Shown: piece after piece, positions 15,378 through 31,588 of the stretch
Layout of the letters: the number at the start of each line of letters is the position of its first letter
Position numbering within the stretch: position 1 is the first letter of the stretch
DNA from: Chthonomonadales bacterium
GTDB lineage: Bacteria > Armatimonadota > Chthonomonadetes > Chthonomonadales > Chthonomonadaceae
Direction: 5' to 3'
DNA length: 51,714 nt
Assembly (NCBI GenBank): GCA_038217285.1
Contig: JBBQPO010000009.1
Span: 1 to 51,714 of the forward strand
Translations under genes and position numbers: made by a program
Notes under the pieces: generated by a model
The model's database searches: none
The model's input: the letters and a program-made list of their open reading frames with translations, nothing else
Told to the model about the DNA's origin: nothing

Positions 15378-15463
15378 TACCAACCGGCTCTTGCACGATG
15401 TTGCGAGATGAGCAACTCGAATGTTCTGTCAGCCTACAGCGTTGCGGGTAAAGAGCAGGGATC

Positions 15464-17236
15464 TCATCGCGGAAGCGGCACGTCTCTACCTGCGAAGCTG
15501 TGGGGCCGAAACTGGGCTTCGTGGAGGCGCTGGTAGACGCCGCCGGCGTTCATCAGTTCGTGATGGAGCCCTTGCTCGGCGATGCCTGTTTCGTCTACGA
15601 CGACGATACGGTCTGCGTTTTGGATCGTCGCCAGTCGGTGCGCGATGACGAGGGTCGTGCGTCCGACGGCCAGTTCTGCCAGTGACGCCTGGATCGCCCG
15701 CTCGGTTTCGGTGTCCAGCGCCGAGGTCGCCTCGTCCAGAATGAGGATGGGCGGGTTTTTCAGGAACATTCGCGCAATCGCCATGCGCTGTTTCTGCCCG
15801 CCGGAGAGCTTCACGCCTCGCTCCCCAATGATCGTCTCCAGCCCGTCGGGCAGTTGGCTGATCATATCGTCCAGGCGTGCGCGGCGGGCCGCTTCCAGGA
15901 TTTCGGCTTCGGTCGCATCGAGGCGGCCGTAGGCGATGTTCTCGCGAATGGTGCCTGCGAAGAGGAAGACATCCTGCTGCACAAGGCCAATGTTGCGCCG
16001 CAGAGACGCCAGTTTCATCTGCCGGATGTCGATACCGTCCACGGTGATGCGCCCGGCGTTGGGCTCGTAGAAGCGAGGCACCAGGGAGCAGATCGTCGTC
16101 TTACCCGCCCCGCTCGGCCCGACGAACGCCACCGTCTCCCCCGCATGGACCACCAGATCGACACCCTCCAGAACATTCTTGTGGGCTTCGTAGCCGAACG
16201 TGACGTTCTCGAAGCGTATCTCTCCCCGCAGATGGCCGATCTCGAGGGCGTCGGGCGCATCGGCTATGTCGGGCACAGTAGCGAGTAGTTCCGTGTAACG
16301 CTTGAAGCCTGCGATGCCCTTGGGATAGGTCTCCAGCACGGCGTTGATCTTTTCGACGGGGCGGAAGAACACATTGACCAGGAGCAGAAAGCCCATGAAT
16401 CCTCCGACCGTCAACTGGTGGTGCAGCACATAGTAGGCGCCCGCGATCATCACGAAGAGCTGCACGATACGCATCGTCATGTAGCTGAGCGACATGCTTT
16501 TGGACATCAGGCGATAGGCGTCGAGTTTGTTCTGGCGGTACTTCTCATTGTCCCCGGCGAAGAGCGCGCGCTCGTGGTCTTCGTTGGCGAAGGCCTGCAC
16601 CACACGGATACCGCCCACATTCTCCTCGATGCGCGCATTGAAATCCCCCACCCGCCCAAACAACGTCCGCATCGTCTGGGTCATGGCTTTGCCATAGCGG
16701 GTCGAGATCCAGGCCATGGGCGGCACGACGAGGCCGGTGATCAGCGCGAGCCTGGCATTGAGGGTGTACATCAGAAGGAAGGAGGCGAAAAAGGTCATGA
16801 TCGCGATGAAGGCGTCTTCGGGCCCGTGGTGCGCGACCTCCCCCACATCCTCCAGGTCTTTGGTCACACGGGCGACGAGTCGGCCCGTCTTCTGATTGTC
16901 GAAGAACCGGAAGGAGAGCTTCTGGAGATGATCGAAGGTCTTGCGGCGCATCTCGGTCTCGATGGAGATGCCGAGCACGTGGCCCCAGTAGTTGACAATA
17001 TAGGACAGACCCGTATTGAGCATATAGATGGCGAGCAGCCCTATCGTCGCTCCGAGGATCAGCCCCCAGTTCTGACTGGGCAGGAGACGGTCGACGAATG
17101 TGCGAACCGCGAGGGGAAAGGCGAGTTCCAGGAGTCCAGAGAGGACCGCGCACGAGAAGTCGAGCACGAACAGCCCGCGATGGGGCCGATAGTAGGCGAA
17201 GAATTGGCGAAGCATAGGTTGTTTAAGGTACTCCAA
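15464..17236 (-). CDS. ABC exporter, fused permease/ATP-binding protein
   Basis: TM domain, Walker A GPSGAGKT, signature LSGGQKQR, Walker B ILILDEATSALD. Confidence 0.96.
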   Translation of the reverse strand: MEYLKQPMLRQFFAYYRPHRGLFVLDFSCAVLSGLLELAFPLAVRTFVDRLLPSQNWGLILGATIGLLAIYMLNTGLSYIVNYWGHVLGISIETEMRRKTFDHLQKLSFRFFDNQKTGRLVARVTKDLEDVGEVAHHGPEDAFIAIMTFFASFLLMYTLNARLALITGLVVPPMAWISTRYGKAMTQTMRTLFGRVGDFNARIEENVGGIRVVQAFANEDHERALFAGDNEKYRQNKLDAYRLMSKSMSLSYMTMRIVQLFVMIAGAYYVLHHQLTVGGFMGFLLLVNVFFRPVEKINAVLETYPKGIAGFKRYTELLATVPDIADAPDALEIGHLRGEIRFENVTFGYEAHKNVLEGVDLVVHAGETVAFVGPSGAGKTTICSLVPRFYEPNAGRITVDGIDIRQMKLASLRRNIGLVQQDVFLFAGTIRENIAYGRLDATEAEILEAARRARLDDMISQLPDGLETIIGERGVKLSGGQKQRMAIARMFLKNPPILILDEATSALDTETERAIQASLAELAVGRTTLVIAHRLATIQNADRIVVVDETGIAEQGLHHELMNAGGVYQRLHEAQFRPHSFAGRDVPLPR

Positions 17237-17502
17237 GCGTAGGCGTCGAGATAGTGAGAAAAGAGAGCCCTCGTTTTACTACGAACGGACTGGCATTGGT
17301 TTCGTCTCCTGTCAGTATCGTTCCATGATATACTTCTGCAAAACGCTTCGGCCTTGATCTCCACGATGTTGATGCCGCTCCAACTCGGTATCCTGTCCAG
17401 AGCGTCGCAGGCCGTTCGCGCCCAAACCAGCGGAGGGAGGGTTTCCCGGTTCCGCTTTCCCATGCGTCCCGGCCAATAATGCGAAAGAGGAGGAAGCGGG
17501 GC

Positions 17503-17531
17503 TTGACATACCTAGCTGAACATGATATAAT
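17503..17531 (+). promoter_or_regulatory. Consensus sigma-70 promoter of the PadR operon
   Basis: TTGACA-17 nt-TATAAT with extended -10 TG. Confidence 0.85.
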
Positions 17532-17571
17532 ACCCATGATAACCCCAAGAGACATAATAAGGAGCCTGACG

Positions 17572-17919
17572 ATGGCTGATGATCGCGATCTATTACGCGG
17601 CAATATTCCTACCCTCATACTCGCTGTCGTGAGCGAGGGGCCTTTGCACGGCCTCGCGATTGCGCGGGAGATCAATCAGCGCAGCAACAAGGCCCTGGAG
17701 CTGAAGCAGGGCACACTCTATCCGGCGCTGCATGCTCTGGAGCGGGATGGATGGATCTGCGGCGAGTGGGAGATCCTCGAGGGGGAGCGACCGCGCAAAA
17801 TCTATACGCTGACCCCCGACGGAACGGCGGAACTGGAGCGTAGGATGCGGGCGTGGGACCAGTTTACAGCGGCGATGGAGAGGGTGACGAGGAGCAAGCG
17901 TCATGAGCAAACAGCCTGA
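17572..17919 (+). CDS. PadR-family transcriptional regulator
   Basis: AAGGAG RBS; LHGLAIAREI, GTLYPALHALE and RKIYTLT motifs. Confidence 0.93.
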   Translation: MADDRDLLRGNIPTLILAVVSEGPLHGLAIAREINQRSNKALELKQGTLYPALHALERDGWICGEWEILEGERPRKIYTLTPDGTAELERRMRAWDQFTAAMERVTRSKRHEQTA

Positions 17920-18613
17920 GCTGAAACTGATTGCAACCGGCCTGCAGGCGCAGCAGCTCTCCTGTGACGAGCGCCTGGAGGACTATCTGGAACATCTGGG
18001 CGCGCCGCTGGTCGGCATCGTGCCCTATCCGGAGCGCAAAGCGTTTCGTCAGGAGGCTCATGCGCATATCGAGGGGCTGATCCGCGAATATGTGTGGCAG
18101 GGGCAGGACCTGAAAAAGGCGACCGAGACAGCTTTGCGGGAGTTCGGTGAGCCCTGGAAGGTGGGACGAGCCTTCTTAGAGGAGTGGCTGCAGGGAACGC
18201 CGCGCCTGCGTCCGCCGATCCTGATCCGCAGGGCGACAAGCACGGCCTTCGCCTGGTTCGGCATCGCCTCCATGCTGATCCTGCTGCTGCTCGAACAGGT
18301 TCTGAGCGCTCCCACGCATGAGGCTCTGCTTCCCGGTATCGGGCTGCTAGCTTTTCTGGCTCCGTTTGTGGCGGGCGGCCTGACAGGGGTGATGTGCCCC
18401 TCCCAGACAGAGCGCGGGGTGCGCAACGCGGTGGGCTTCCTGACCTTGCATTCCGTTGTCATCGGCCTACTCTTGCTGCCCAGGGTAGAAGGCTTGGCCT
18501 TTGCCGCGTGGCAGTTGCTCTTCTGGCTGCCCGCGGGCCGGATTACCGCCGGGATGAGCGCCGCCTGCCTGCGACAGGCGCGGCGTCAACGTTTTTGGCA
18601 GATCGCTCGTTAG
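17903..18613 (+). CDS. Membrane protein with N-terminal HAAS/permease-prefix domain (PadR partner)
   Basis: EAHAHIE...ALREFGEP motif followed by about four TM helices; overlaps the PadR stop. Confidence 0.75.
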   Translation: MSKQPELKLIATGLQAQQLSCDERLEDYLEHLGAPLVGIVPYPERKAFRQEAHAHIEGLIREYVWQGQDLKKATETALREFGEPWKVGRAFLEEWLQGTPRLRPPILIRRATSTAFAWFGIASMLILLLLEQVLSAPTHEALLPGIGLLAFLAPFVAGGLTGVMCPSQTERGVRNAVGFLTLHSVVIGLLLLPRVEGLAFAAWQLLFWLPAGRITAGMSAACLRQARRQRFWQIAR

Positions 18614-18658
18614 GTGGAGGGCGGCGCGCTGTGGCGCCTGCTCCGGAAAGGTACGCAC

Positions 18659-19357
18659 ATGTCACTCCGTCTCTCTCGTCCCCTCGGATTTACCCTCGTC
18701 GAGTTACTGGTAGTAATCGCTATCATCGGCCTCTTAGCGGCGCTGCTGTTTCCGATCTTCGCCAGAGCGCGCGAGAAGGCGCGGCAGACCACCTGCGTCA
18801 GCAATCTGCGCCAGCTCGGGCAGGCGTTCACGCTGTATGCCCAGGACTACGACCAGCGCCTGCCGGAGCAGTGGTTGGGCAGGTCGAAGGACTCTCCGAA
18901 CAGCGCGGCTCTCACGACCGCCTGGGAGACTTACATCAACCCCTACACGAAGAGTAAGGAGATCAACCGCTGTCCGAGCGACATCCTATCGGCTCCGCTC
19001 AACGTGCCCGGTACGAACACGACGCTGTTCAGCTCGTACGCCACAGCCTGGAACGTGCAGGGACAGACGTTGGCGGCGATCCCTTCGTCCTCGATGACCG
19101 TTCTGCTCGTCGAAAACTGGCAGAACGCGGATACCGATCTGAACTGGCTCGTGCAGCAGCTTGGGAAGAAGAGCTTTACGATGGAGTGGCCAGCTGTCTT
19201 TGAGCAGCCGGAGTTTCGCCATAACGAGACGGGCAACTATCTGTTTGTAGACGACCACGTCAAAACGTTGCCGGGCCCAAACCCGAAGTTTCCTGGCTAC
19301 CTGACGGGGCCGAACGGCGCGGCCCGCTGCGCAGGCGGCGATCCTTTGCCACAGTGA
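18659..19357 (+). CDS. Prepilin-type N-terminal cleavage/methylation protein (DUF1559, H-X9-DG-like)
   Basis: [42 protein letters not shown]-terminal [16 protein letters not shown] (DD in place of DG). Confidence 0.92.
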
Positions 19358-19606
19358 CCTAGCTGCGTCGGGTGAGAGTCCGTGAATCTCGGGCGGAATC
19401 TGGATCGTCAGGGACAGGTCTGCGGTTTTATCGGGGGTCTTCAGGGAGACCCCCAGTCAGGCCGAGCCGGACTGCCTGCTGGGGAGAGGGCCAGGGCGCG
19501 CCATTGGGACGATGACGGTGGTATGCGGTAAGCGTTGAGTCATTCGTCCGGTTGGTAGTGCCACTACTGAAAGCGAACGACAGAAAGCCGACGCCATCGT
19601 TGCGGA

Positions 19607-20194
19607 TCAACCATAGATTCGCGCGTAGGATTGCAACCGTCGCAGGTCCTTGTCAAACTTTTCCGGATCGAACAGTTCCGGGTCATATTTGCGTCCTACC
19701 CATTGCTTCATATCCTTGTGTTCAGGGTGGCGTGGATTCGCCAACACTTTCAGCAAAGAGACATATCCCGGCACGCTGCCGCAGTCTTCCGGCGGACAGG
19801 CGCGTTTGCCGGCCATACACAGAGGATATCTGGTGTTTGGGAACGGAGGAAGCACCTTTTCAAGAGTCACGACATGCTCCCAGTCGTCCCCAAAGTCGTA
19901 AGTATAGAGGAACGTATCCTTCGAAGCGCTTATCAGGTCGTTCAAGCGCAACTTCCGCTCGTCCTCCATCTGCAACTCTTCGAGAGCGCCCTCTTCATAG
20001 GGCATCGTAAATCGACGGTCTCCGAACATAAAACAGTGCAGATGCGAGTTTGTCCAACCCATCGCCGCTTGAAGGACAAGATGCAGATCATCCAACCTGA
20101 TGTCCCACGGAATCTGGACCCGCCGCCAGATTTGCGGGCGAATATCGCTCAGCACGATCTTCAACTGATACACGTTGCCTATAGGTTGACGCAT
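19607..20194 (-). CDS. Plasmid pRiA4b ORF-3 family protein
   Basis: IWRRVQIP...LHLVLQAAMGWTNSHLHCF, YTYDFGDDWEH and RACPPEDCG. Confidence 0.9.
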   Translation of the reverse strand: MRQPIGNVYQLKIVLSDIRPQIWRRVQIPWDIRLDDLHLVLQAAMGWTNSHLHCFMFGDRRFTMPYEEGALEELQMEDERKLRLNDLISASKDTFLYTYDFGDDWEHVVTLEKVLPPFPNTRYPLCMAGKRACPPEDCGSVPGYVSLLKVLANPRHPEHKDMKQWVGRKYDPELFDPEKFDKDLRRLQSYARIYG

Positions 20195-20248
20195 CTCTTC
20201 GTCCTTTCGACACTTCCAGATCATTAATAGTGCAAGACGCCTTCCCGC

Positions 20249-20697
20249 GTGCACCTACGCGTTCATTTTGGCCAGGAGGAAGTTCTCCCTCTATTCGAAC
20301 CGTCGAAAACGTTCAGGCGTCGCGGTACTGGGCGAAGAGGGCGAGAGCGGCTTCGAGGGACATCGCGCCGAGGTCGCCTTCGGTGCGGCGGCGGACGCTG
20401 ACGGTGCTGTTCTCGATGTCTTTGTCGCCGAGGATGAGCATGACGGGGATCTTCTGCATCTCCGACTCACGGATGCGTTTGCCCATCTTCTCATTGCGGT
20501 CGTCCATCTTGACGCGGAAACCGGCGGCTTTGAGCTGCTCGCCGACCTCGTTGGCGTAGGCGTAGTGTCGCTCCGCGATGGGGATGAGGACGATCTGCTC
20601 CGGGGCGAGCCAGAAGGGGAACGCGCCCGCATACTGCTCGATCAGCACGCCGAGGAACCGCTCCGTCGTGCCCGTGACCGCGCGGTGCAGCACGACC
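20249..20697 (-). repeat. Duplicated thrS 3' end, copy R1 (about 128 codons, open frame, plus about 65 nt of downstream sequence)
   Basis: Near-identical to 24993-25441; encodes VVLHRAVTGTTERF...AQYRDA. Confidence 0.97.
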
Positions 20698-20699
20698 AG

Positions 20700-22448
20700 T
20701 TAGTCGAATCGAATCCCGAAAAGCCCCCCATCTTCCGTTGCATCAGTAAGACGAACCACATTTACGAAATCCATCGGCGCAAAATCATCACCAGACTTCT
20801 CGCTCAACAACGTATCAGAATTTAGGGCGACAATATGCTGAAATCGGTATACATTGGACATCTCATGGCCAACTTGTAGTGCTGTCAACACCTGACGAGG
20901 GTCTACGCCATCGAAAAGATGACTGTCATGAATCAGGTATCCTGGGTTAATTGCGCGTTCAACGGTTATCCGTATGAGTGCGATATCAAAACAGAAAACC
21001 TGCATTGACGAAACTCCTTTGCTCTTCTGCCCCTGGATGCGGACTTCGAATTTGGGTCCATCCTGAGTATCATTAACAACGAGGCTACCCGCCTTTTCAT
21101 ACAGACGCGAAGACACATCTTCAAATGTGACAATTGCCTCATCAACGCGCTGCTTTTGCTCCTTTAGATCTTGTTGCAATCGAAGCATCAAGCGTTGGCG
21201 TTCTATTCCAAGTTCTGCTTGCTGACCTTGGAGATATTCCGCTGTTTCTAGTTGTTTCCGCAAAGCCTCAGTTTCTTGCTCCAAACGAGTTAACTCGGCT
21301 TGCAAACCCACATAACTTTCCAGAGCACCACCTGATCTGATGATGCTCATGATCTCTTGTCGTCGGCGATCAAGCGCTTCCTTTTGGCTCTCTCGATCCC
21401 TAATTCTTCGCAAAGCATCTTCCATCGCACCAGCAAGATAACTGCGTCGGTTATCGACAACAGAACGGTGAAATGCGGATAACTCCTCGAAACGTTTCAA
21501 GGCAACATCAGGCAGTTCAACTCCAGCCTCTTGATAAAGTGCTTGGAGGTCGCTATAAGATGGAAGTCTTTCTATATCGAGCGCTGCCTGTAACTCGCTT
21601 GCCAAAGATCGATCTATCGTATTCCCATCCGCTAATTCCCCAAGTTGCTTTGTAAGGAACGTAGCCTCGATTTCTAGTTCTCGGTACTCAGGCACGACCT
21701 GGAAGTTTCCCACACTAGTGCGCATACGCACAACTCTTTGCTCACGAACAGCGAGACGTGTCCGTAGTTCGGCGGGATCTCCCACAATTTGTCCCAAGTC
21801 AGCAGTGCTGGATGCTTTTTTTATTTCTCGGAGCATCCGCTCACGGTCGCGGACAAGTTGCCATTGTTGTGCAATCGTCCAATCAAGTCCCAAAAGAAAT
21901 GAAATAGCCACCTGACTGTCCCCTTCAGCTTGTTGAGTCGCTTGCTTGAACGGAGAAGAAAAGCCACCGCTATTCTGTTTTCGGATAAAATACGCAATCA
22001 GTTGGCGAAACTTTGGTGCCCAGGCACCCCATGTTTCCTCCTCAACAGGAATTCCAAAGACGAGATGTCCAAGAACTGATTTCCATTTCTCGTTCGAGAT
22101 AATCCCCTCTTCATTTGGCTGATGCGGCCACGTCGCTGTATCGCCATCGACAAGATGAACCTCCGAAGGTTTAGCACCCATTCGCTTGACTGTAACCTTT
22201 GAACCTCCCAGGTCGAATGTCATACAGAACCAATGTCTAATGAGAGCAGAGTTCCTGAAGATCGAGTCCTTCTCGCAGTTGCCTCCCAATAGAAAATGGA
22301 TTGTTTCTATGAAGCTCGTTTTTCCCGCTCGATTACGAGTTTGACGTTGTGTGGAATCTTCCGTTTTGTCCGACAGGAGGATATTTAGCCCTGGACCGAA
22401 CTCCATGGATTTGAACGATGTAAGGGTAGAAAATACGCGGTAGATCAT
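20700..22448 (-). CDS. ABC-three-component / Lamassu LmuB-like SMC-type ABC ATPase (DUF2326-like)
   Basis: FGPGLNILL, Walker A RNRAGKTS, central coiled coil, Walker B-like LIHDSHLFDGVD, C-terminal LFGIRFD. Confidence 0.85.
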   Translation of the reverse strand: MIYRVFSTLTSFKSMEFGPGLNILLSDKTEDSTQRQTRNRAGKTSFIETIHFLLGGNCEKDSIFRNSALIRHWFCMTFDLGGSKVTVKRMGAKPSEVHLVDGDTATWPHQPNEEGIISNEKWKSVLGHLVFGIPVEEETWGAWAPKFRQLIAYFIRKQNSGGFSSPFKQATQQAEGDSQVAISFLLGLDWTIAQQWQLVRDRERMLREIKKASSTADLGQIVGDPAELRTRLAVREQRVVRMRTSVGNFQVVPEYRELEIEATFLTKQLGELADGNTIDRSLASELQAALDIERLPSYSDLQALYQEAGVELPDVALKRFEELSAFHRSVVDNRRSYLAGAMEDALRRIRDRESQKEALDRRRQEIMSIIRSGGALESYVGLQAELTRLEQETEALRKQLETAEYLQGQQAELGIERQRLMLRLQQDLKEQKQRVDEAIVTFEDVSSRLYEKAGSLVVNDTQDGPKFEVRIQGQKSKGVSSMQVFCFDIALIRITVERAINPGYLIHDSHLFDGVDPRQVLTALQVGHEMSNVYRFQHIVALNSDTLLSEKSGDDFAPMDFVNVVRLTDATEDGGLFGIRFD

Positions 22449-22675
22449 CGCTTTACCTTCTTTAGGCGGCCTTCGTGATACTCCACGGTGCCGATGAGAA
22501 ACAGCAGATCCAACGACAAAATAAACCAGTCGTACGACACGCTCGCCCCGCTATCACGCTGGATCGTTTCCCATAATCGTGAAACTGTCTGCGGGTGATT
22601 AAGTTGACGAAGAACACGTGCGCCCAATCCAAGAAGGGCTTTATCTGCGGAGATTCGTTTTGTGGGCAATATCAC
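22445..22675 (-). CDS. ABC-three-component middle component (LmuC-like)
   Basis: MILPTKRI...TVSRLWE...YDWFILSLDLLF; 76 aa; ATGA/GTGA overlaps with both neighbours. Confidence 0.8.
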   Translation of the reverse strand: MILPTKRISADKALLGLGARVLRQLNHPQTVSRLWETIQRDSGASVSYDWFILSLDLLFLIGTVEYHEGRLKKVKR

Positions 22676-23595
22676 GATTCCCCTCCCTTTAGTTCGCTTG
22701 CATCATGTCGCTCGAAGATATCGCATTCTTCGAAGAAGTGAGCTAGAATTGCCAGTGCAGCGGCTTGCTCACGGTCAGATGTAGCATCATTTGCTCCAGC
22801 GTAACCCCTTAATTCCCAAAAGATGCTATCGGGATCCAAGCCCTTTTCCTTCAGTTCAATATACTTCTCGTTAAATTGAAACGCAAGAGCATCGCCATAA
22901 CGGGGATCTCGATAGTTATCAAAGTAGTGAGCAACCAGAGAAGACTTTATCATCCCAAGCGTCAGAAAGGCAGCAACGTCACCGGAAAGTGCATTCATTT
23001 GCAATTTGTCCGCCGGTACCGGGCGCAAATCGACTCCCAACGGCGGATCAACAGTCTGGATATGCTGAAGGACTTTCTCGACATCGGAAAATCTTACCTT
23101 CTGCATCGCTAAGGTAGATGGCGCCGGTCCAAGAACAAATTGAATATCTACAGGCTCCAACTCGAACAACTTCGCTCTTAATTCGGCGAATCCCCATGGC
23201 GTAAAGCCGATCATAGGATTGGCTTCTCCGAAAGCTTGTGTCTTCTGAAGAACAAACGGCGGTACCCCCTCACGAGAGTTATGGACGAAATTCCAATGTT
23301 CAAACTTCCCACTCCAATGGATACACGCTCCCTGAAAATCTTCGTCCATCTTTCTTTCTGTCTCTGCTCTGGTAAGTTCATCAGGGGCATAGACTTGAAA
23401 TAGCCGCTTCTCGCTGGCAAGCCATCCATCACACTTTTGGTCACCGATATTTCCCCACGGACGCACCTGCGTGAAGTCGATGGGATATCGCAACTCCATA
23501 ATTCTCGTAAAAAGCGTCTGGAACGCCGAGGATCGAAATACCACAAAGTCCCTTTCGAACGTCCTTTCCCAATACATTCTCGTGATTTGTTCCAT
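22672..23595 (-). CDS. ABC-three-component effector: restriction-endonuclease-like N-terminal domain plus CTD (LmuA-like)
   Basis: AFQTLF...GNIGDQKCDG...FQVYAP nuclease-like core and C-terminal LAHFFEECDIFE. Confidence 0.78.
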   Translation of the reverse strand: MEQITRMYWERTFERDFVVFRSSAFQTLFTRIMELRYPIDFTQVRPWGNIGDQKCDGWLASEKRLFQVYAPDELTRAETERKMDEDFQGACIHWSGKFEHWNFVHNSREGVPPFVLQKTQAFGEANPMIGFTPWGFAELRAKLFELEPVDIQFVLGPAPSTLAMQKVRFSDVEKVLQHIQTVDPPLGVDLRPVPADKLQMNALSGDVAAFLTLGMIKSSLVAHYFDNYRDPRYGDALAFQFNEKYIELKEKGLDPDSIFWELRGYAGANDATSDREQAAALAILAHFFEECDIFERHDASELKGGES

Positions 23596-23884
23596 TATGT
23601 GGTAGTCACCTCATCATCTAACGCGAAAATATCGTTTTATCGTTTTATTGTCTTACCGGACAAAGGGCGCACGACCAAAATTGGCCCGCAAACATCGTTT
23701 GGTCGTATCACGTTGATCGTTACCACGTTCGACACTTGGGGCCGTTATTCCTATCAAGGCGAGGGCGATACCAAGATATTTGAACCATGTCGAGTTTGCA
23801 AACGCAAGCTGAACGCGAGGAACACGCATCCGAGTCAAAAGAGCCGGACATTTTCAGAATGTCCGGCCTATCAGACTGTTGCAA

Positions 23885-24238
23885 TATTCGAACCGTCGAA
23901 AACGTTCAGGCGTCGCGGTACTGGGCGAAGAGGGCGAGGGCGGCTTCGAGGGACATCGCGCCGAGGTCGCCTTCGGTGCGACGGCGGACGCTGACCGTCT
24001 GGTTCTCGATATCCTTGTCGCCGAGGATGGGCATGACGGGGATCTTCTGCATCTCCGAATCACGGATGCGTTTGCCCATCTTCTCATTGCGGTCGTCCAT
24101 CTTGACGCGGAAACCGGCCGCTTTGAGCTGCTCGCCGACCTCGTTGGCATAGGCATAGTGTCGCTCCGCGATGCGGATAATGGCGATCTGCTCCGGGGCG
24201 AGCCAGAAGCGGAATGCACCCGCATACTGCTCGATCAG
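23885..24238 (-). repeat. Duplicated thrS 3' end, copy R2 (more diverged, pseudogene fragment)
   Basis: Encodes LIEQYAGAFRFWLAPEQIAIIRIAERH...AQYRDA, homologous to the thrS C-terminus. Confidence 0.95.
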
Positions 24239-24289
24239 GATGGTGCCAACGATGGGCTGACGGCCATCGGCTTTCTGATCGCGGAGGGG

Positions 24290-24628
24290 CTATGCCATGT
24301 CTACGGCAACGCGTAACGCCTGCTCCACCTGTGTCAGCGTTATTAGGGATACTTCGCCCATCCGCCGGATGAGCCGCGCGTTGTCAATGGCGCGGGCCTG
24401 ATGGCACAGGGCAACACTGTCAACGGACAGTCCGGCTTCGCCCGCAGGAACCTGTACACAGAAGGGGAATCGCGCCCAGTTGGCATTCGAGGTAAGAGGG
24501 ACAATGACAGCGGTACGCAGGAAAGCGTTGAGCGGATCCGCCTGCAATATGAGCACGGGACGCGTTCCGGCCTGCTCGGAGCCGCGGATCGGATCAAGGG
24601 AGGCCATCCACAGTTCGCCGCGTCTCAC
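24290..24628 (-). CDS. mazF: Type II toxin, PemK/MazF-family endoribonuclease
   Basis: MRRGELWMASLDPIRGSEQAGTRPVLILQ, VPLTS and DSVALCHQARAID. Confidence 0.93.
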   Translation of the reverse strand: MRRGELWMASLDPIRGSEQAGTRPVLILQADPLNAFLRTAVIVPLTSNANWARFPFCVQVPAGEAGLSVDSVALCHQARAIDNARLIRRMGEVSLITLTQVEQALRVAVDMA

Positions 24629-24876
24629 GCTTTGTCCGCCTCGGCCAACTGGCGGGCGTAGTCGTCCATGCCTGCCTCGGCAAGGGCCACGTCTTCGTCG
24701 GCAAGCCTGCTGTACAGGGTGATGAGAGTCGGATCAAGGAGCAACTGCCTGCGCTGCTCGGCGTGCACATATTGGCGCAAGGCGTCGGCGACTACGTCGG
24801 CCTTGGAACGCCCCTTGCGGGTTGACACACGTTCGAGTTCCGCGTCTAAGGCTTCATCAATCGTGAGGGTGACCAT
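24625..24876 (-). CDS. CopG/ribbon-helix-helix antitoxin
   Basis: LTIDEALDAEL...GRSKADVVADALRQY; overlaps the toxin start. Confidence 0.85.
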   Translation of the reverse strand: MVTLTIDEALDAELERVSTRKGRSKADVVADALRQYVHAEQRRQLLLDPTLITLYSRLADEDVALAEAGMDDYARQLAEADKA

Positions 24877-24966
24877 TGCCTGATGTCTCCTTGCCGAAGT
24901 TCAAGATGCGGATATTATAGCAGACGGTGGCGCAGACGGCAAGGGACGGCATGGCTGCAGAGGCGG

Positions 24967-25006
24967 ACACGTGGGCGCGCAGTCTTTCTGTTGTGCGCCC
25001 ACGTGT
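24967..25006. terminator. Stem-loop downstream of thrS
   Basis: ACACGTGGGCGC / GCGCCCACGTGT 12-bp inverted repeat; a T-run follows only on the plus strand. Confidence 0.45.
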
Positions 25007-25056
25007 GCTTTTTGGACTGGAAGAAGTTCTCCCTCTATTCGGACCGTCGAAAACGG

Positions 25057-26808
25057 TCAGGCGTCGCGGTAATGGGCGAAGAGGGCGAGGGCGGCTTCAA
25101 GGGACATCGCGCCGAGGTCACCTTCGGTGCGGCGGCGGACGCTGACGGTGCTGTTCTCGATGTCTTTGTCGCCGAGGATGAGCATGACGGGGATCTTCTG
25201 CATCTCCGACTCACGGATGCGTTTGCCCATCTTCTCGTTGCGATCGTCCATCTTGACGCGGAAACCGGCGGCTTTGAGCTGCTCGCCGACCTCGTTGGCG
25301 TAGGCGTAGTGTCGCTCCGCGATGGGGATGAGGACGATCTGCTCCGGGGCGAGCCAGAACGGGAATGCGCCCGCATACTGCTCGATCAGCACGCCGAGGA
25401 ACCGCTCCGTCGTGCCCGTGACCGCGCGGTGCAGCACGACCGGCGTCTGCTCGTTGCTCTCCGCATCGATGTACTTGCAGCCGAGGCGGGCAGGCTGGAT
25501 GAAGTCGACCTGGATGGTGGAGATCTGCCACTCGCGGCCCAGCGCATCCTTCGTCAGGAAGTCGGCTTTGGGGCCGTAGAAGGCCGCCTCGCCGGGCGCT
25601 TCGAAATATTCGACCGCGTTGGCGTCGAGGGCGCTGCGGAGGGCGTCGGTCGCCTTCCTCCACTTCTCGTCGTCGGCGACATACTTGCCGCCCGGCTCCT
25701 CGCCGCGCAGGGAGAGACGAACCCGGTAGTCCGTAAAGCCGTAACGCGTCAGAACCTCCCGGATCAGCTTGAGGGCCAGCGCAAACTCGCTCTCGATCTG
25801 GTCTTCCGTGCAGAAGATATGGCAGTCGTCCTGCGTCAGGGCGCGCACCCGCGTCAAGCCGTTCAACTCGCCCGTCTTCTCGTAGCGGTAGAGCGTGGCG
25901 AACTCGGCGTAGCGCAGCGGCAGGTCGCGGTAGGAGTGGTACTGGGCATTGAACAGTGTCATGTGCGAAGGGCAGTTCATCGGCTTGAGGCGATAGTTGA
26001 TACCCGCCTCCTCATCCCGCATCGGCGGGAACATCACGTCTGCATAGTTCTCGTAGTGGCCGCTCTTCTTATAGAGATCTTCGCGCACCAGATGGCCCGT
26101 CCAGACGTGCTGATAGCCGTAGCGCGTCTGCACCTCGCGCACATAGCTCTCCATCGTGTGGCGCAGCATCTCGCCTTTCGGCAGGAACAGCGGGATACCG
26201 GAGCCGATCGCCTCCGGCGCGAAGACGAACAGTCCCAACTCCTTGCCCAACTTGCGGTGATCCCGCAGTTTGGCCTCTTCCAGCCGCTGCAGGTAGTCGT
26301 AGAGCTCCTGCTTCGTCGGCCAGACCGTGCCGTAGATACGCGTCAGCATCTTGTTCTTCTCGCTGCCCCTCCAGTAGGCCCCCGCGATATGGAGCAGCTT
26401 GAAATGCTTCATAGAACCCGTGCTCGGCAGGTGCGGCCCCCGGCAGAGGTCGATCCAGTCGCCCTGGCGATAGAACGAGATCACCTCGCCCTCCGGCAGA
26501 TCATCGATCAGTGCGACCTTGTAAGGCTGGTCCAGCGCCTCCTCGAACGCGCGAGCCTCGGCGCGCTCCTTCTCCTCGCGCACGATCGGCAGGTTTCGGC
26601 CCGCGATCTCGCGCATCTTCTCTTCGATTCGCGCCAGCTCCTCCTCTTTCAGCGGCTCCTTAAACTCGAGGTCGTAGTAGAAACCATCCTCGATAGGCGG
26701 GCCGATGGCGTACTTCACGCCGGGAAAGAGCTCTCCGACGGCCTGGGCCATCAGGTGCGCCGTGCTGTGGCGCAGATCGTAAAGCGCATCATGCGCGACT
26801 TCATTCAT
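25057..26808 (-). CDS. thrS: Threonine--tRNA ligase (short form, no N-terminal TGS domain)
   Basis: RHSTAHLMAQA, DLCRGPH, RDHRKLG, LKPMNCP, GEAAFYGPK and HRA motifs. Confidence 0.98.
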   Translation of the reverse strand: MNEVAHDALYDLRHSTAHLMAQAVGELFPGVKYAIGPPIEDGFYYDLEFKEPLKEEELARIEEKMREIAGRNLPIVREEKERAEARAFEEALDQPYKVALIDDLPEGEVISFYRQGDWIDLCRGPHLPSTGSMKHFKLLHIAGAYWRGSEKNKMLTRIYGTVWPTKQELYDYLQRLEEAKLRDHRKLGKELGLFVFAPEAIGSGIPLFLPKGEMLRHTMESYVREVQTRYGYQHVWTGHLVREDLYKKSGHYENYADVMFPPMRDEEAGINYRLKPMNCPSHMTLFNAQYHSYRDLPLRYAEFATLYRYEKTGELNGLTRVRALTQDDCHIFCTEDQIESEFALALKLIREVLTRYGFTDYRVRLSLRGEEPGGKYVADDEKWRKATDALRSALDANAVEYFEAPGEAAFYGPKADFLTKDALGREWQISTIQVDFIQPARLGCKYIDAESNEQTPVVLHRAVTGTTERFLGVLIEQYAGAFPFWLAPEQIVLIPIAERHYAYANEVGEQLKAAGFRVKMDDRNEKMGKRIRESEMQKIPVMLILGDKDIENSTVSVRRRTEGDLGAMSLEAALALFAHYRDA

Positions 26809-26863
26809 GGACTATTTTCTCCTGGATGATTACCAATGAATCGATTTTGAGTGATAAGGCGAC

Positions 26864-27021
26864 AAAAAAGCCGCCTGCCCTGTTCTGTAAGGGTAGCGGC
26901 GTGGGTTGCAAGGGTCCGGGTCGAGGAGAGCGAGTGGGCTAGGGAGAGCCGGGAGCGCAGACAGGACGACGCAACATCACGCCAGTGTGGGCGGTATCAA
27001 CCGACACGGGCGAAGCCTCCT
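26864..27021 (-). promoter_or_regulatory. Putative thrS leader attenuator: uORF plus intrinsic terminator
   Basis: AGGAGG-8 nt-GTG uORF at 27007-26939 (MSVDTAHTGVMLRRPVCAPGSP), then a GC hairpin with U6 at 26900-26864. Confidence 0.45.
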
Positions 27022-27096
27022 GATTGCGGTGAGATGATGCGTTTCGTGCGGACAAAGACGGGCTCGTTTCCTCGGGTATGCGCTGCAACACTCCTT

Positions 27097-27125
27097 ATTA
27101 TAGGCGGAATAGATACGAATGTCAA
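27097..27125 (-). promoter_or_regulatory. Consensus sigma-70 promoter for thrS
   Basis: TTGACA-17 nt-TATAAT on the minus strand. Confidence 0.85.
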
Positions 27126-27158
27126 GAGGAGCCACAGACTTATCCTCGGCGGTTTCCA

Positions 27159-27187
27159 TTGACAGAGACGGTTAGGCATGATATAAT
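27159..27187 (+). promoter_or_regulatory. Consensus sigma-70 promoter for tRNA-Ser (divergent from thrS)
   Basis: TTGACA-17 nt-TATAAT with extended -10 TG. Confidence 0.85.
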
Positions 27188-27299
27188 AGGGACTGGATTG
27201 TGCAGGCGCGCATCGCACCTGGTGCGACTGTTCGTTGGATGCTTCTCTCACTCGGCAACGATCATTCCCCTTGTGTCGGGCCTGCGCTTTCTTTTGTGT

Positions 27300-27387
27300 G
27301 GAGTGATGTCCGAGTTGGTCTAAGGAGCACGATTGGAAATCGTGTAAAGGTTTACCCCTTTCGAGGGTTCGAATCCCTCTCGCTCCG
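27300..27387 (+). tRNA. tRNA-Ser(GGA)
   Basis: Acceptor GGAGTGA/TCGCTCC, anticodon arm CACGA-TTGGAAA-TCGTG, long variable arm, GGTTCGAATCC. Confidence 0.95.
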
Positions 27388-27469
27388 TTGTTCGTCGAAG
27401 CCTATAGTTGTCTGAAGGGGCGAGTTCGGCAGGAAGCCGGACTGCGCCCCTTTCCCGCACCTGCGGGGC

Positions 27470-28978
27470 GTGTTCGTGGTTCAGGAGGAGTCCTTGCCCC
27501 GTCGTCGTTTGCCTGCGCGTGTCATCTCCCGCTGGGTCGTGGCGGGCCTGCTGCTGCCCTGCGTCTACTTCGCCGGAGAGGGCGGGGCGTTCTTCTACCG
27601 ACAGCGCGCCGTCTACGCGGCGACCGGCTCCGTACGCCTGCCGGAGATGCCGGCGCCCACCCACGCCGAACGGCTCCTGGTCTTCGCGCCGCACTGCGAC
27701 GATGAGACGCTGGGCTGCGGCGGGCTGATTCAGCAGACGCTCGCGGCGGGCGGCGCGGTGCAGGCCGTGATGCTGACCAACGGCGACGGCTTTCGCACCG
27801 CGGTTGCGCGACAGGCGCGCACACTGCGTATCGGGCCGCAGGACTATATTCGGTTCGCGGCGCTGCGGCAGGACGAGTCGCATACCGCGCTCGGGGCGCT
27901 GGGCGTCACGCCGAACCATGTGCTGTTTCTCGGTTATCCGGATCGCGGCCTGATGGCCCTGTGGGAAGATCACTGGTCTGCGGAAACCCCCTACGCTTCG
28001 GTCTTCACCCACCAGACGCGCTCGCCCTACGCCGACACCTTCGATCATAACGCGCGTTACTGCGGACACGATCTGCTGGTCGACATCAAGACGACCCTGC
28101 GCACCTTCCGCCCTACCCTCGTCACGGTGACTCATCCGGCAGACGATCACTCCGACCATGCCGCTGCCGCCGCCTTCGTGGCCCGCGCTGTGCAGGAGCT
28201 GCAGGCGGACCCGCATGAGCGCGCCTGGGCAAAGCGTATCCGCCTGCGCTACTATCTGGTGCATCGAGGCGACTGGCCTCTGCCGCAGGGGGCGCATCCG
28301 GAATCGCCGCTGCTGCCCCCCGTCGAGATGCGCAATGTCGATACACGCTGGGAATCGCGGCCTCTGACCCCGGCGCAGACACGAGGCAAGGCACGCAGCA
28401 TCCGCCTCTATCCCTCGCAGTGCGAGATCGCGCAGGAGTTTCTGACCGCCTTTGCGCGCCGCACCGAGATTTTCGGAACCTTACCGGAGATGCAGTTGCC
28501 GCGCCTCCCCGTCGGTGGCCCGCGCCTTGCTTCCGACGCCCAGGCATGGGAGCATCTGCCGCCGGTGCTGCTCGATCCGGCCCGCGATACGGTGCTGCGC
28601 GACCTGCAGGGTGGCGGCGACATTCGTACGCTCTATGCCTGCCGTGACGGGAACACCCTGCGCCTGCGCCTGGACACCCGCCAGCCGATCAGCCGACGTT
28701 TCGTCTATACTATCCGACTGCGCGCCTTCGGGGCGAACGGAGAGACGCCTGCGGCAGACTGTGTCCTGCGCCTCGGCCCGAACCTGGCGGAATCGAATAC
28801 AGGCGATAAGGTGCGAACCGGCGTGCAGGACCGAACCCTGACAGCGGCCCTGCCCTGGGAAGCCCTGACGCGGCCTCTGAACGGTGCGGCCCTCCGCACC
28901 CTCGCCGTCAGCGTCACGACGACTCTGGGCGATGTCGAGGTGGATAAGACCGGAATGCGATTTCTGCAATGTCCGTGA
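27470..28978 (+). CDS. PIG-L/LmbE-family deacetylase with N-terminal membrane anchor
   Basis: FAPHCDDETLG, LTNGDG, FLGYPD and HPADDHSDH. Confidence 0.9.
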   Translation: MFVVQEESLPRRRLPARVISRWVVAGLLLPCVYFAGEGGAFFYRQRAVYAATGSVRLPEMPAPTHAERLLVFAPHCDDETLGCGGLIQQTLAAGGAVQAVMLTNGDGFRTAVARQARTLRIGPQDYIRFAALRQDESHTALGALGVTPNHVLFLGYPDRGLMALWEDHWSAETPYASVFTHQTRSPYADTFDHNARYCGHDLLVDIKTTLRTFRPTLVTVTHPADDHSDHAAAAAFVARAVQELQADPHERAWAKRIRLRYYLVHRGDWPLPQGAHPESPLLPPVEMRNVDTRWESRPLTPAQTRGKARSIRLYPSQCEIAQEFLTAFARRTEIFGTLPEMQLPRLPVGGPRLASDAQAWEHLPPVLLDPARDTVLRDLQGGGDIRTLYACRDGNTLRLRLDTRQPISRRFVYTIRLRAFGANGETPAADCVLRLGPNLAESNTGDKVRTGVQDRTLTAALPWEALTRPLNGAALRTLAVSVTTTLGDVEVDKTGMRFLQCP

Positions 28979-29658
28979 GAGATCCGGGCCTGTCGTTGGA
29001 GCAGACGGCGGAGATGCGGCTTGGCATCATGGGCGGCACGTTCGACCCGATCCATTATGGGCATCTGTTCGTCGCAGAGGAGGCGCGGGCGCGGTTCGCT
29101 CTCGATCATGTGCTGTTCGTGCCCAACGGTGCGCCGCCGCACAAGAAAGAGTACCTGCTGACCGCCGCGCGCGACCGTTATGAGATGACCCTACTGGCGA
29201 CCGCCGACAACCCGGCCTTCACCTGTACGGCGTTGGAGTTGGAGCGGCCCGGCCCCTCGTATACGGTTGAGACGCTGACGACACTGCGCGCACAGTATGC
29301 AAGCGCGGAGCTGTTCTATATCACGGGGATCGACGCCATCGCCGATATACTCACCTGGCGACGCCATGACGAGATCATTCGTATGGCGACGTTCATCGCC
29401 GCAGCCCGCCCCGGCTTCGACCTGAAGACGCTGCAAGACCGCCTGCCGGCGGCCTATATGGAACGGATCCTGCTGCTCGGAACGACCGCGCAAGGCATCT
29501 CTTCCACCGAAATCCGTGAGCGCACACGCGCCAAACTGCCGACCCGCTACCTCACCCCGGATAGGGTGCTGGACTATATAAGAGAACACAAGCTGTATGA
29601 GAACAAGGCCGTCCCTGTCGGGGACGCCGCCTCCCAGGCTGGAGAGAGAACATCGTGA
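28969..29658 (+). CDS. nadD: Nicotinate-nucleotide adenylyltransferase
   Basis: GIMGGTFDPIHYGH, PPHK, SYTVETL and ISSTEIR. Alternative start at 29014. Confidence 0.96.
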   Translation: MSVRDPGLSLEQTAEMRLGIMGGTFDPIHYGHLFVAEEARARFALDHVLFVPNGAPPHKKEYLLTAARDRYEMTLLATADNPAFTCTALELERPGPSYTVETLTTLRAQYASAELFYITGIDAIADILTWRRHDEIIRMATFIAAARPGFDLKTLQDRLPAAYMERILLLGTTAQGISSTEIRERTRAKLPTRYLTPDRVLDYIREHKLYENKAVPVGDAASQAGERTS

Positions 29659-30239
29659 CGAAATCGACTGAGCAGACAACGCCGCCCCGGCGCGACGATA
29701 GTGAACTGGAAGCGCTCGAAGAACTCGAGAATCTGAAAGAGCTGGAAGAGTTGCAAGAGTTGGAAGACCTGCAAGAACTGGAAGCGATGGAAGCAGAGGA
29801 ACTTGAGGAAGAGGAGTTCGAAGAAGCCGAGCCGGTCGCGACCCTGGAAGAGCTCGATACCGAAGAGCGCCTGAAGATCGTGGTCCGCGCGGCCGATGCG
29901 ATTAAGGCGACCGACATTATCGCGCTCGACCTGCGCGGTTTGACCATCATCGCCGACTTTTTCGTCATCTGCACGGGCAAATCTTCCATTCAGATACGCG
30001 GCATCGCCGACCGTATGGAAGAGAAGATGCGTGAAAGCGGCTATCGCAAGCTGCGCATGGAAGGCTACCAGGAAGCGACCTGGATCCTGATCGACTTCGG
30101 CGATGTCGTCGCCCATGTCATGGCGGAGGAGCAGCGGGCCTTCTTCGGACTGGAAGAGTTCTGGTCCGAGGCGCCGCATGTGGAACTGGACATCGTGCCC
30201 GAACCCACGACGCTCAACGCCTCCTCGTTTGCGCCGTGA
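29655..30239 (+). CDS. rsfS: Ribosome silencing factor with an acidic N-terminal extension
   Basis: KATDIIALDL, ADFFVICTG and WILIDFGDVVAHVM; located after nadD. Confidence 0.93.
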   Translation: MTKSTEQTTPPRRDDSELEALEELENLKELEELQELEDLQELEAMEAEELEEEEFEEAEPVATLEELDTEERLKIVVRAADAIKATDIIALDLRGLTIIADFFVICTGKSSIQIRGIADRMEEKMRESGYRKLRMEGYQEATWILIDFGDVVAHVMAEEQRAFFGLEEFWSEAPHVELDIVPEPTTLNASSFAP

Positions 30240-30274
30240 CGCTGTTTTGATCGATTCGAAGAGGGAGCCACGCC

Positions 30275-31588
30275 GTCAACTACCGCCCTCTGAAGAGGGC
30301 GGCTTGTCCCTAGTTGGAAGCGAGTGCTTCTAACCGGAACATTAGGGCGGCTGACAGTTCGCCCCGTGCCTTCAGATTCAGCGCCGCATTCAAGTCAGCG
30401 TTGAGTCTCAGGCCACAACATAGACATTCAAAACTCTCCTGGCTCTTGCGGTTGCCCCGCGCACAGTGACCACAACCCGAACAAGTCTGGCTGCTGTAGC
30501 GAGGATCGACCTCAAGGAGAGGCACTCCCGCTCGCTGGCACTTGTAAGCGAGGAAGCGTTTGAGTTGATCGAATGCCCAACTGTTGAGTTCGGTTCGCAT
30601 CGCCCGACTAAAACTGTTTCCTCGCTGACGAATGCCCATCAGAGCTTCGCAGGCGAGTGCCTTCTGTCGGTCTAGCGCGAGTTGAACCATTTTCTTACTG
30701 ATGCAGTGGTTGACGTTCTTGACGAAGCGGCTTTCCCGCTGGCTTGCTTTTTGAAGATGCTTGCGGGCAGATCGGGTCCTCTTGGGCTGAAGGAGTTTGC
30801 GAAGCCTACGGCACTTCTTTCTGACCTTCTTGAGCGCCTCGCCGGAATACTGATTTCCTTCGCTGTCTGTGGCGACGTTGACGATGCCGAGGTCGATACC
30901 GATCACGCCTGTGGGCACAAAGGGCGTCTCTTTCGCTACGCTGACAGCGACACAGAGATAGAACTGCCCGTTTCGCAGGAGCAGGTCCGCCTGCCCACGC
31001 TTGCCGCTCAGGAGTGCCTTGTCTCTCCCTGAGCAAAGGAAGCGCAGTTTGAGGCGACCGCGCACGGTGTTGACGGAAACGGTCTGTTCCAAGACTTTCC
31101 AGGCGAGGGTGTCTTTGTTGAACTCGATAGCGCCGGTCGGGTCAAAGGTACGGAGGCTCTGGGTACTCTGTTTGTAGGCGTTGGCGACCTTTGCAATCGC
31201 ACAAATAACGTGCCCCGCCGCCAGGTCGGTTGCGGCGCGAGTGTTGTGGTAGGTGCGGTGGTGCAGGTCGAACTTGCGGAAGGTCTTTTGGTCGAAGGCG
31301 ATGCGGCTGATACGGTCGCACGCAGCGTTACACATCCGCAGAGTTTGGAGCAGAGCGGCGTGTTCCTCTTCGGAGGGTTGGAGTTTGACGCGCGTGGTGA
31401 GTTGCATGACACTTCTTCACTACGCGAAAACCGGCCGAACCGGAAAGCCGTTCAAAAGTATTTTCAACAAAAACCGAAAGGAGCGTACGAGGGGATGATT
31501 GCAAAGCCCGGTGCTGAGACACCGGTTTCGCAACAGGATGACAATTCCTCTGCCACCTAAAGGAGGCAGTCCCCTTGTCATATTTTTT
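30275..31588 (-). mobile_element. Non-autonomous IS200/IS605-family element (tnpB only, possible tnpA remnant)
   Basis: Right end GTCAACTA-CCGCCCTC-TGAA-GAGGGCGG-CTTG (30275-30306); left-end hairpin TGACAA-TTCCTC-TGCCACC-TAAA-GGAGGCA-GTCCCC-TTGTCA (31539-31580). Removing the element joins an RBS to an ATG. Confidence 0.85.
30310..31407 (-). CDS. tnpB: RNA-guided endonuclease TnpB
   Basis: RuvC-I GIDLG, RuvC-II ACEAL, Zn finger CSGC/CLCC, RuvC-III NADLNAA; 365 aa. Confidence 0.95.
   Translation of the reverse strand: MQLTTRVKLQPSEEEHAALLQTLRMCNAACDRISRIAFDQKTFRKFDLHHRTYHNTRAATDLAAGHVICAIAKVANAYKQSTQSLRTFDPTGAIEFNKDTLAWKVLEQTVSVNTVRGRLKLRFLCSGRDKALLSGKRGQADLLLRNGQFYLCVAVSVAKETPFVPTGVIGIDLGIVNVATDSEGNQYSGEALKKVRKKCRRLRKLLQPKRTRSARKHLQKASQRESRFVKNVNHCISKKMVQLALDRQKALACEALMGIRQRGNSFSRAMRTELNSWAFDQLKRFLAYKCQRAGVPLLEVDPRYSSQTCSGCGHCARGNRKSQESFECLCCGLRLNADLNAALNLKARGELSAALMFRLEALASN

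Follow-up and report, generated by a model that had tools for sequence, protein, structure and literature searches.

Displaced thrS 3' ends border toxin-antitoxin and candidate defence cassettes in a Chthonomonadales genome and may mark homology-anchored insertion without a dedicated recombinase

Accessory genes enter bacterial chromosomes by several described routes, and the locus considered here, a tandem array of cargo genes and truncated gene tails behind the threonine-tRNA ligase gene thrS of a Chthonomonadales bacterium, resembles several of them in part. The window analysed is a whole 51.7-kb contig (51,714 nucleotides; C9) of a metagenome-assembled genome (MAG; G000) with 459 contigs and 95% completeness, and the array lies at 19607-26808 on its minus strand. 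The islands of phage 21 and e14 carry their own icd tail, accretion of cis-mobilizable elements (CIMEs) has reportedly been described at the 3' end of fda (PMC7563491, PMC5812530), and toxin-antitoxin cassettes are common in chromosomal integrons. Like integrase islands and CIMEs (e14/phage 21 at icd; fda), the thrS array has a rebuilt gene end next to a displaced native one, and in both cases units could accrete in tandem; unlike them, it has no integrase that could be found, many unrelated targets are occupied in one genome, and the duplications span 96-449 bp. With integrons and clusters of attC sites lacking integrases (CALIN), it shares serial, co-oriented cassettes behind a fixed point. 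It differs from these in that no intI was found on the contig (no Phage_integrase match; attC models were not searched), the repeats are fragments of a host gene and vary in length rather than being attC sites, and no common promoter logic is seen.

Other described routes do without a dedicated recombinase. In Campylobacter, homologous recombination between copies of a conserved gene (pcp- or tetO-mediated) is reported to make circles that carry resistance cassettes and are themselves inserted by homologous recombination (PMC10770853). The thrS array is alike in its direct duplication on both sides of the cargo, in its use of a conserved host gene as address and in its lack of a dedicated recombinase, and its units could in principle loop out as circles. 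Here, by contrast, single-copy housekeeping genes provide the address through their 3' ends, and insertion rebuilds the gene while stranding a truncated tail; the units carry toxin-antitoxin or candidate defence genes, and no circle has been seen. Type VI secretion system (T6SS) arrays of Vibrio grow by successive, integrase-free displacement behind a conserved anchor, for which homology-facilitated illegitimate recombination (HFIR) was proposed and Rhs cited (PMC5361080). Such displacement arrays (T6SS, Rhs and contact-dependent inhibition, CDI) and the thrS array have in common growth downstream of an anchor by horizontal gene transfer, stranded 3' pieces of the anchor and the lack of an integrase. 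There, displacement strands a functional toxin tip along with its immunity gene, and the toxin gene itself serves as anchor, whereas the anchor in the present case, an essential gene, is unrelated and leaves inert fragments. Hotspots without mobile-genetic-element genes turn over by recombination in flanking core genes (PMC5635113); likewise, their cargo turnover is integrase-free and the thrS-downstream region is non-syntenic among genus relatives. In that model the exchange is a double crossover in both flanks that leaves no duplication, whereas here one flank is involved and a duplicated gene end remains as a scar. The thrS structure is thus a variant of known recombinase-free acquisition routes (HFIR arrays, circles made by homologous recombination, and hotspots free of mobile elements), and its interest lies in genome-wide recurrence and a bias toward toxin-antitoxin cargo. 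We know of no description, from term-based literature searching, of housekeeping-gene tails as addresses for toxin-antitoxin or defence cassettes, or of such an arrangement in Planctomycetota.

Read along the minus strand, the array proceeds from thrS through a ribbon-helix-helix (RHH) gene and a MazF gene to a displaced thrS fragment (R2), and then through a three-gene ABC-3C operon and a second fragment (R1) to a PRiA4_ORF3-family gene. The intact thrS (25057..26808) encodes a threonine-tRNA ligase of 583 aa with the Pfam domains tRNA_SAD, tRNA-synt_2b and HGTP_anticodon, a G+C content at third codon positions (GC3) of 0.87 and a match to NCBIfam TIGR00418 that scores 683.6 bits (cut-off 383.65). 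When the thrS region was compared with the window by BLASTN, exactly two additional copies of its 3' end were recovered, both ungapped, and a whole-genome search placed the thrS 3' end in three places, all on the window contig, with no further copies in the genome. The copy inside the intact gene, T, comprises the last 385 bp of thrS and 64 bp past the stop (24993-25441). R2 (23885..24238) holds the last 111 codons, the stop and 21 bp, and matches 25036-25389 over 354 bp at 92.66% identity (26 mismatches); R1 (20249..20697) holds the last 127 codons, the stop and 64 bp, and matches 24993-25441 over 449 bp at 95.99% (18 mismatches). The two fragments begin at distinct thrS positions, R1 at 25441 (-385, counted back from the end of thrS) and R2 at 25389 (-333).

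The cargo next to thrS, designated unit 2, consists of an RHH (CopG-type) antitoxin gene (24625..24876; Pfam RHH_1, E 6.7e-4, at 20.0 bits marginally under the cut-off of 20.5) and a MazF/PemK-family toxin gene (24290..24628; Pfam PemK_toxin, E 7.7e-28, 97.3 bits; NCBIfam ChpB/MazF matches under cut-off). The genes overlap by 4 bp, and the pair shows the layout of a type II MazEF toxin-antitoxin system, which it is predicted to encode. Between R2 and R1 lies the cargo of unit 1, whose first gene encodes a CTD10 protein of 307 aa (22672..23595; Pfam CTD10, E 1e-18; PADLOC PDC-M68A, E 1.7e-24; GC 0.48), followed by the 76-aa ABC-3C middle component MC6 (22445..22675; Pfam MC6, E 2.1e-20) and a 582-aa ABC ATPase with DUF2326 and CTD10 (20700..22448; Pfam DUF2326, E 6.1e-36). 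The GC content of this operon is 0.46-0.49, compared with 0.60-0.66 in its surroundings. Beyond R1 stands the PRiA4_ORF3-family gene (19607..20254; 215 aa, GC 0.53; Pfam PRiA4_ORF3, E 4.8e-69). No thrS remnant longer than 14 bp occurs in 17000-20200, so this gene is not bracketed by an additional thrS copy, and it is either native flank or older cargo. The original prediction for this DNA, made from the letters alone, had described the array accurately: the order is borne out by the BLASTN repeats and the Pfam/NCBIfam genes, the co-orientation of all cargo with thrS by the minus-strand gene calls, and the differing start points by 25441 versus 25389, and the stated lack of an integrase or transposase holds by Pfam for 19607-25441, with a TnpB/OrfB_IS605-like gene lying outside at 30310-31407. 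As a separate observation, R1 opens 3 bp past the TAA codon that ends the ABC ATPase gene and continues its reading frame (window 20693-20702), where a 126-aa open reading frame (ORF; 20313-20693, GC3 0.91) spans the stranded anticodon-binding domain; readthrough would fuse the ATPase to the R1 fragment.

Aligned in register, the three copies of the thrS end are mosaic. The left part of the type found in T and R1 is denoted 'a' and the R2 type 'b'. Over 25441-25133, T and R1 agree at 305/309 positions (52/52 plus 253/257), and over 25389-25133, T and R2 agree at 237/257 (20 differences). Over 25132-25036 the closest pair is R1 and R2, with 95/97, and T agrees with each of them at 91/97. This heterogeneity of similarity along the copies is significant (Fisher p=0.002), and the switch falls between 25132 and 25120. 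T may accordingly be written a|b and R2 b|a, reciprocal hybrids that a single reciprocal crossover of a uniformly 6-8% divergent unit would explain. The differences are mainly synonymous, with dN/dS of 0.17 for T-R2 and 0.04 for T-R1, as compared with 0.10, 0.11 and 0.20 for the orthologue pairs that T forms with the related genomes G001, G002 and G004. Since these values are like those of orthologue pairs, the fragments are alleles that diverged in the working thrS of related lineages and not decayed in-situ duplicates. Three radical changes in R2, at residues common to T, R1 and G001, are consistent with some decay following displacement. Outgroup polarisation names no donor, as G001, G002 and G004 are about equidistant from 'a' and 'b' (229-230/257).

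Taken together, these features suggest that the array arose by two successive recombinase-free, homology-anchored insertions behind thrS, by insertion-duplication of the RecA type, a reading to which we give an even chance. Each incoming unit would have consisted of the thrS 3' end of a related lineage and its cargo, and recombination inside the thrS homology (RecA-type, ends-in or Campbell-like) would have produced a complete hybrid thrS, the cargo and a truncated tail. A full gene, an insert and a truncated copy are the expected topology, because a single crossover of a circle that carries a 3' gene fragment yields just this, and the direct duplication in the window, with one complete and one truncated gene copy, has the form of Campbell-type insertion-duplication. 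Unit 1 (3593 bp) would have delivered the ABC-3C/PDC-M68 operon, its donor having a thrS only about 1-2% divergent, too little to place the crossover. Unit 2, a circle of 1151 bp with a 'b'-type thrS tail and RHH-MazF, would have had a donor at about 6-8% divergence, with its crossover lying 63-75 bp ahead of the stop codon, at 25120..25132 (minus strand), where the similarity pattern among the three copies switches. It would have met a resident 'a'-type thrS end already trailed by ABC-3C, giving T = a|b and R2 = b|a. The many targets, the long and variable duplications, the allelic fragments, the reciprocal mosaic and the absence of shared end motifs and of a recombinase together argue for homologous recombination rather than for a site-specific recombinase or transposase. 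We infer the circular form of the incoming unit, its dependence on RecA and its route of entry as DNA. Toxin-antitoxin cargo would be expected to persist and to be over-represented in such units, as loop-out between the repeats would kill the cell.

A like process would have operated at eight or more further conserved genes in this genome. When the genome was compared with itself, 40 pairs of direct repeats were obtained that had spacers of 500 bp or more and lay no more than 8 kb apart, and a script classed 8/40 as having the 3' end of a long, high-GC3 ORF as the upstream copy and a stranded fragment downstream. Two of these are at thrS, and the remaining six are on C35, C81, C236, C277, C347 and C438; C164 (groEL) and a second C81 pair (C81b), both under the script thresholds, were added by eye from the alignments. 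At the eight non-thrS loci the repeat is 96-279 bp long and 91-100% identical, and comprises the final codons of the gene, its stop and a further 3 to about 70 bp, at which point the cargo starts; the groEL repeat on C164 is identical at 114/114 positions. The targets encode GroEL (C164; TIGR02348, 833.7 bits), LepA (C277), an Mg-chelatase/ComM-like ATPase and a DZR_2 + Pribosyltran protein (both by domain content; the latter we take to be ComF-like), a branched-chain permease, an NYN-domain protein (C236), a 240-aa protein for which no family was found, and a 796-aa ORF. Cassette-bearing targets that are ComM-like and ComF-like by domain content lie at C438:1777-2793 and C81:17286-18080; proteins of these types are tied to natural transformation in other bacteria, and they are of interest for DNA entry.

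The cargo at 4/8 of these loci consists of PIN toxin genes with a small partner ORF, and elsewhere of an 85-aa ORF distantly like the window RHH region, a DUF2325 protein, DJ-1 and SDR, and three small unassigned ORFs. Its GC content (0.52-0.58) is lower than that of the repeats (0.52-0.66) at 7/8 loci, the exception being C277. None of the eight loci carries a recombinase, their cargos have no DNA-level relatedness to one another, and no 10-mer is common to the cargo ends of three or more among the 18 spacers compared. The lepA unit is also present in G004 (L062:1501-2707), with cargo 72% identical and a shorter fragment of 58 bp; it would either predate the G000/G004 split or have been acquired twice, and such units can outlive speciation.

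The surroundings of thrS in relatives were surveyed by searching proteins across the order (68 genomes in all) and by self-scanning the thrS-locus DNA of 22 genomes, mostly over about 1.4 kb downstream; the resulting fragment counts are lower bounds, as the protein search missed G063. Tail fragments of thrS were found in G015, G063 and G046, which represent two lineages, and with the repeats of G067 this amounts to 4/22 self-scanned genomes. G015 and G063, of one genus, have the order thrS-RHH-MazF-fragment with a fragment start at about -152, and their cassettes are 77% and their thrS genes 76% identical, probably the result of a single old, inherited event; at 71%, G063 is too far diverged for the G015 crossover to be located. 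This thrS-MazEF unit and the lepA unit of G000/G004 look old and vertically inherited, which argues for stability and against fast turnover. G046, of another family, has a cargo of 2.65 kb with two unassignable opposite-strand ORFs, a fragment start at -131 and a contig break at the repeat; its copies differ by 1 mismatch over about 90 bp (-131 to -41) and then at 10/40 positions. Its 615-aa cargo protein matches no Pfam, PADLOC or NCBIfam family and groups in the Atlas with unnamed hypothetical clusters. In G067 (L033:3348-4425) an opposite-strand PIN toxin gene stands between two 41-bp copies (83%) of post-stop thrS sequence. As to whether fragment start points are fixed or variable, a check proposed with the original prediction, they vary across the set: -385 and -333 in the window, about -152 in G015/G063 and -131 in G046. 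In an extra-thrS-tail survey across the phylum (401 genomes), second matches among those listed were confounded by paralogues.

Closer to the window, synteny with it downstream of thrS is lacking in the three genus relatives fetched and in two other family members. G001 (L024:3109-3208) retains, behind thrS, 49 bp of the RHH upstream region and 51 bp of the RHH 3' end, the intervening 194 bp being deleted, and has no MazF; therefore, a relative of the window MazEF cassette formerly stood behind thrS in the G001 lineage. No thrS fragment was found within 15 kb downstream in G001 or in the fetched G002 and G004 loci. In G002 (L025:14194-15960) an IS66-family transposase-like ORF of 588 aa, matched in its C-terminal part only, lies directly 3' of thrS, another sign of the thrS-downstream spot as a rearrangement point.

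Recombinases were sought by Pfam. No integrase was detected in any called ORF of 19607-25441 or in the ORFs of 11584-19357 and 27078-32590, and the ORFs scanned downstream of thrS in G001, G002, G004, G015, G020, G024, G046, G063 and G067 include no integrase and only the IS66-type transposase of G002. Genome-wide, there are 5 Phage_integrase (PF00589) and 4 Resolvase (PF00239; one under cut-off) matches, all of them off the repeat-bearing contigs. Near the TnpB-like gene mentioned above (365 aa; Cas12f1-like_TNB and OrfB_IS605; minus strand), which lies 3.5 kb upstream of thrS, no TnpA was seen among the scanned ORFs.

An alternative possibility, which we judge unlikely, is sequential displacement by HFIR. 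A linear segment of thrS and cargo would recombine in thrS, and its far end would join illegitimately upstream in a second thrS copy; each fragment would then be a former resident 3' end, and a later T-R1 gene conversion would have made the mosaic, with a step count equal to that of insertion-duplication. The variable fragment starts speak for such displacement, G046 fits it well with near-identity from -131 to -41 followed by 10 differences in the last 40 bp, and the model is one published for T6SS and Rhs arrays (PMC5361080). What it has to accommodate in the window is that T, from donor 2, would need 98-100% likeness to R1, the oldest resident, over 309 bp, and that R2, from donor 1, would need 98% likeness to R1 in the last 97 bp only. 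Moreover, the duplication requires two copies of the recipient segment, and the joints at 20697/20698 and 24238/24239 have no clear microhomology by eye.

It is also conceivable, if quite improbable, that the units are decayed or satellite site-specific islands of the CIME kind, with an integrase acting in trans or since lost; such islands would carry their own thrS tail and accrete in tandem to leave integrase-less units. Their attL/attR topology with a rebuilt gene end matches that of the array, and the inferred crossover (-76 to -64) maps to conserved sequence coding for GDLGA, which is also within the G046 identity block. Yet no integrase lies in or beside the thrS units (68 order genomes by protein, plus annotated loci), the fragments are 96-449 bp long with variable starts, and the cargo ends have no motif in common. 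The number of targets bears on this explanation as well: one integrase would be expected to serve one target, whereas like anatomy is found at nine or more genes of this genome with unrelated cargo ends. These would need as many specificities, as against just 5 tyrosine and 3-4 serine recombinase matches, none on target contigs.

Very improbable is a long target-site duplication that some unknown insertion mechanism produced in situ, such as capture by end joining where a break was staggered or a fork had collapsed, with divergence thereafter. The unit 1 copies (the inferred earlier thrS end and R1), about 99% alike to 21 bp past the stop, and the fully identical groEL repeat would suit it, but R2 diverges by 7% through mainly synonymous changes (dN/dS 0.17), and the level of divergence shifts sharply within the repeat, unlike that of a decaying pseudogene. 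In addition, the fetched thrS-downstream loci of G001, G002 and G004 are without a thrS fragment, and G001 retains its antitoxin remnant.

The physical arrangement of the array was checked with Logan contigs (k=31) from four public runs, placed on 18500-27500. Run X1, in which 90% of the words occur, probably represents the sample from which the window was assembled. One X1 contig (20668-23914, 0 differences) holds the entire ABC-3C cargo and 30 bases into each adjoining thrS copy, and another (24089-25150, 0 differences) holds the left part of R2, MazEF and the right end of thrS; in X3, a run from another study, a contig at 23993-24259 crosses the MazF/R2 junction. As these junctions between cargo and mid-thrS sequence occur on k=31 contigs, they do not stem from graph collapse. 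The X1 contig depths are comparable (flank 7.43, ABC-3C 6.89, MazEF 9.06, thrS 7.62), which points to one tandem array, since alternative strain alleles would divide the thrS depth between them. Depth and junction contigs thus favour a single tandem array over misassembly or strain variants; no contig bridges a whole repeat, and the unit order rests on the MAG assembly together with the depth argument. That the MAG chained strain variants having different genes behind thrS is scarcely credible: its 459 contigs, the unspanned repeats and run X2, which has the ABC-3C operon with MazEF uncovered (a hole in the contigs and no evidence of absence), speak for such an artefact, but they are set against the junctions in X1 and X3, cargo depths equal to the thrS depth in X1, and the like structure in G015, a 5-contig, 99%-complete genome.

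Two further observations come from these runs. Joints in X2 (e.g., 20630->25970) were considered as an excision signal and rejected, as their sides are only 20 letters long and derive from other thrS genes. In a contig of run X4 (24241/25423), R2-like sequence is connected to the upstream part of thrS across 30 other letters; the contig looks like a full-length thrS with an R2 ('b') type 3' part, which would be the gene of the donor lineage.

Several points weigh against insertion-duplication by homologous recombination. The mosaic depends on 5-6 right-side sites, and one T-R1 gene-conversion tract could mimic it. G046 misfits a uniformly divergent circle and fits an illegitimate joint with a one-sided homologous crossover, or later conversion, and because the window crossover interval lies inside the G046 identity block, the thrS cases alone are compatible with a fixed crossover. 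No empty site is demonstrable, as synteny 3' of thrS, groEL and lepA is not kept in genus relatives; the regions of groEL (C164), the NYN gene (C236), lepA (C277) and the C35 target were searched in the four such relatives, and downstream synteny was not conserved. The Logan contigs contain no circle or excision junction, although they break within the repeats and could not show one, and the X1 contigs are not independent of the window, X1 being probably its source.

The cargo of unit 1 probably belongs to a candidate defence family. DUF2326, MC6 and CTD10 score above the Pfam cut-offs, and together with the PADLOC matches to PDC-M68A and PDC-M68B they indicate an operon of the ABC-3C type, candidate PDC-M68. 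PDC-M68B covers the ATPase over 1-581/581 (E 1.8e-150), whereas LmuB matches part of the protein at E 7e-15, and PADLOC gives no LmuA match in the operon. The nearest relatives found for the ATPase are 40-46% identical and lie in metagenome contigs (2 loci); in genome contigs it has relatives at 31-45% in 6 loci (an Alphaproteobacteria MAG, Streptomyces and Streptosporangium), none informative on context. The operon had originally been called 'ABC-3C/Lamassu-like', of which the first half is supported by Pfam and PDC-M68 and the second is weak. The proposed mechanism fared similarly. Serial addition of thrS ends with cargo from relatives, without a dedicated recombinase, gains from the mosaic, the dN/dS values, the variable starts and the lack of an integrase. 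Neither thrS as a special anchor nor the image of an integron-like defence accordion is supported: at least eight other genes of the genome have like structure, and an 'accordion of defence genes' is an overstatement, because cargo genome-wide is mostly PIN toxin-antitoxin pairs and assorted genes, and within the array one unit is candidate defence (PDC-M68/ABC-3C) and the other a MazEF toxin-antitoxin.

Elsewhere in the window, a DUF1559/N-methyl gene (Pfam), of a kind suggestive of Planctomycetota, adjoins the locus, and a giant ORF of 3004 aa (GC3 0.81) extends over 38841-47855 on the plus strand. A repeat of about 266 bp (e.g., G000 C81:16662-16927) has copies at 68-97% identity on over 40 of the genome's contigs, with a partial copy at window 36660-36751; it could represent the N-terminal part of a conserved gene or else a small repeat element.

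Genomes contain many toxin-antitoxin and defence genes for which no vehicle is visible. If the tail of a conserved gene suffices for carriage between relatives, such integrase-free 'islets' would be explained, and the signature of gene, cargo and tail fragment would reveal recent transfers in any genome. Addictive cargo would then be expected to be enriched, since the flanking repeats otherwise delete the insert. For annotation, the lesson would be that a short 'pseudogene' matching the tail of an essential gene marks the border of an insertion. More broadly, and only tentatively, it is possible that selfish toxin-antitoxin and defence cassettes move in general without a recombinase, carrying a housekeeping 3' end as a 'homology address', looping out as small circles through host recombination between their two tails and re-inserting behind the same gene in relatives, with the gene rebuilt each time and the unit guarded by addiction. 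The eight other loci of this genome are consistent with such mobility and, if it is real, these units would constitute a widespread class of mobile elements that encode none of their own mobility genes.

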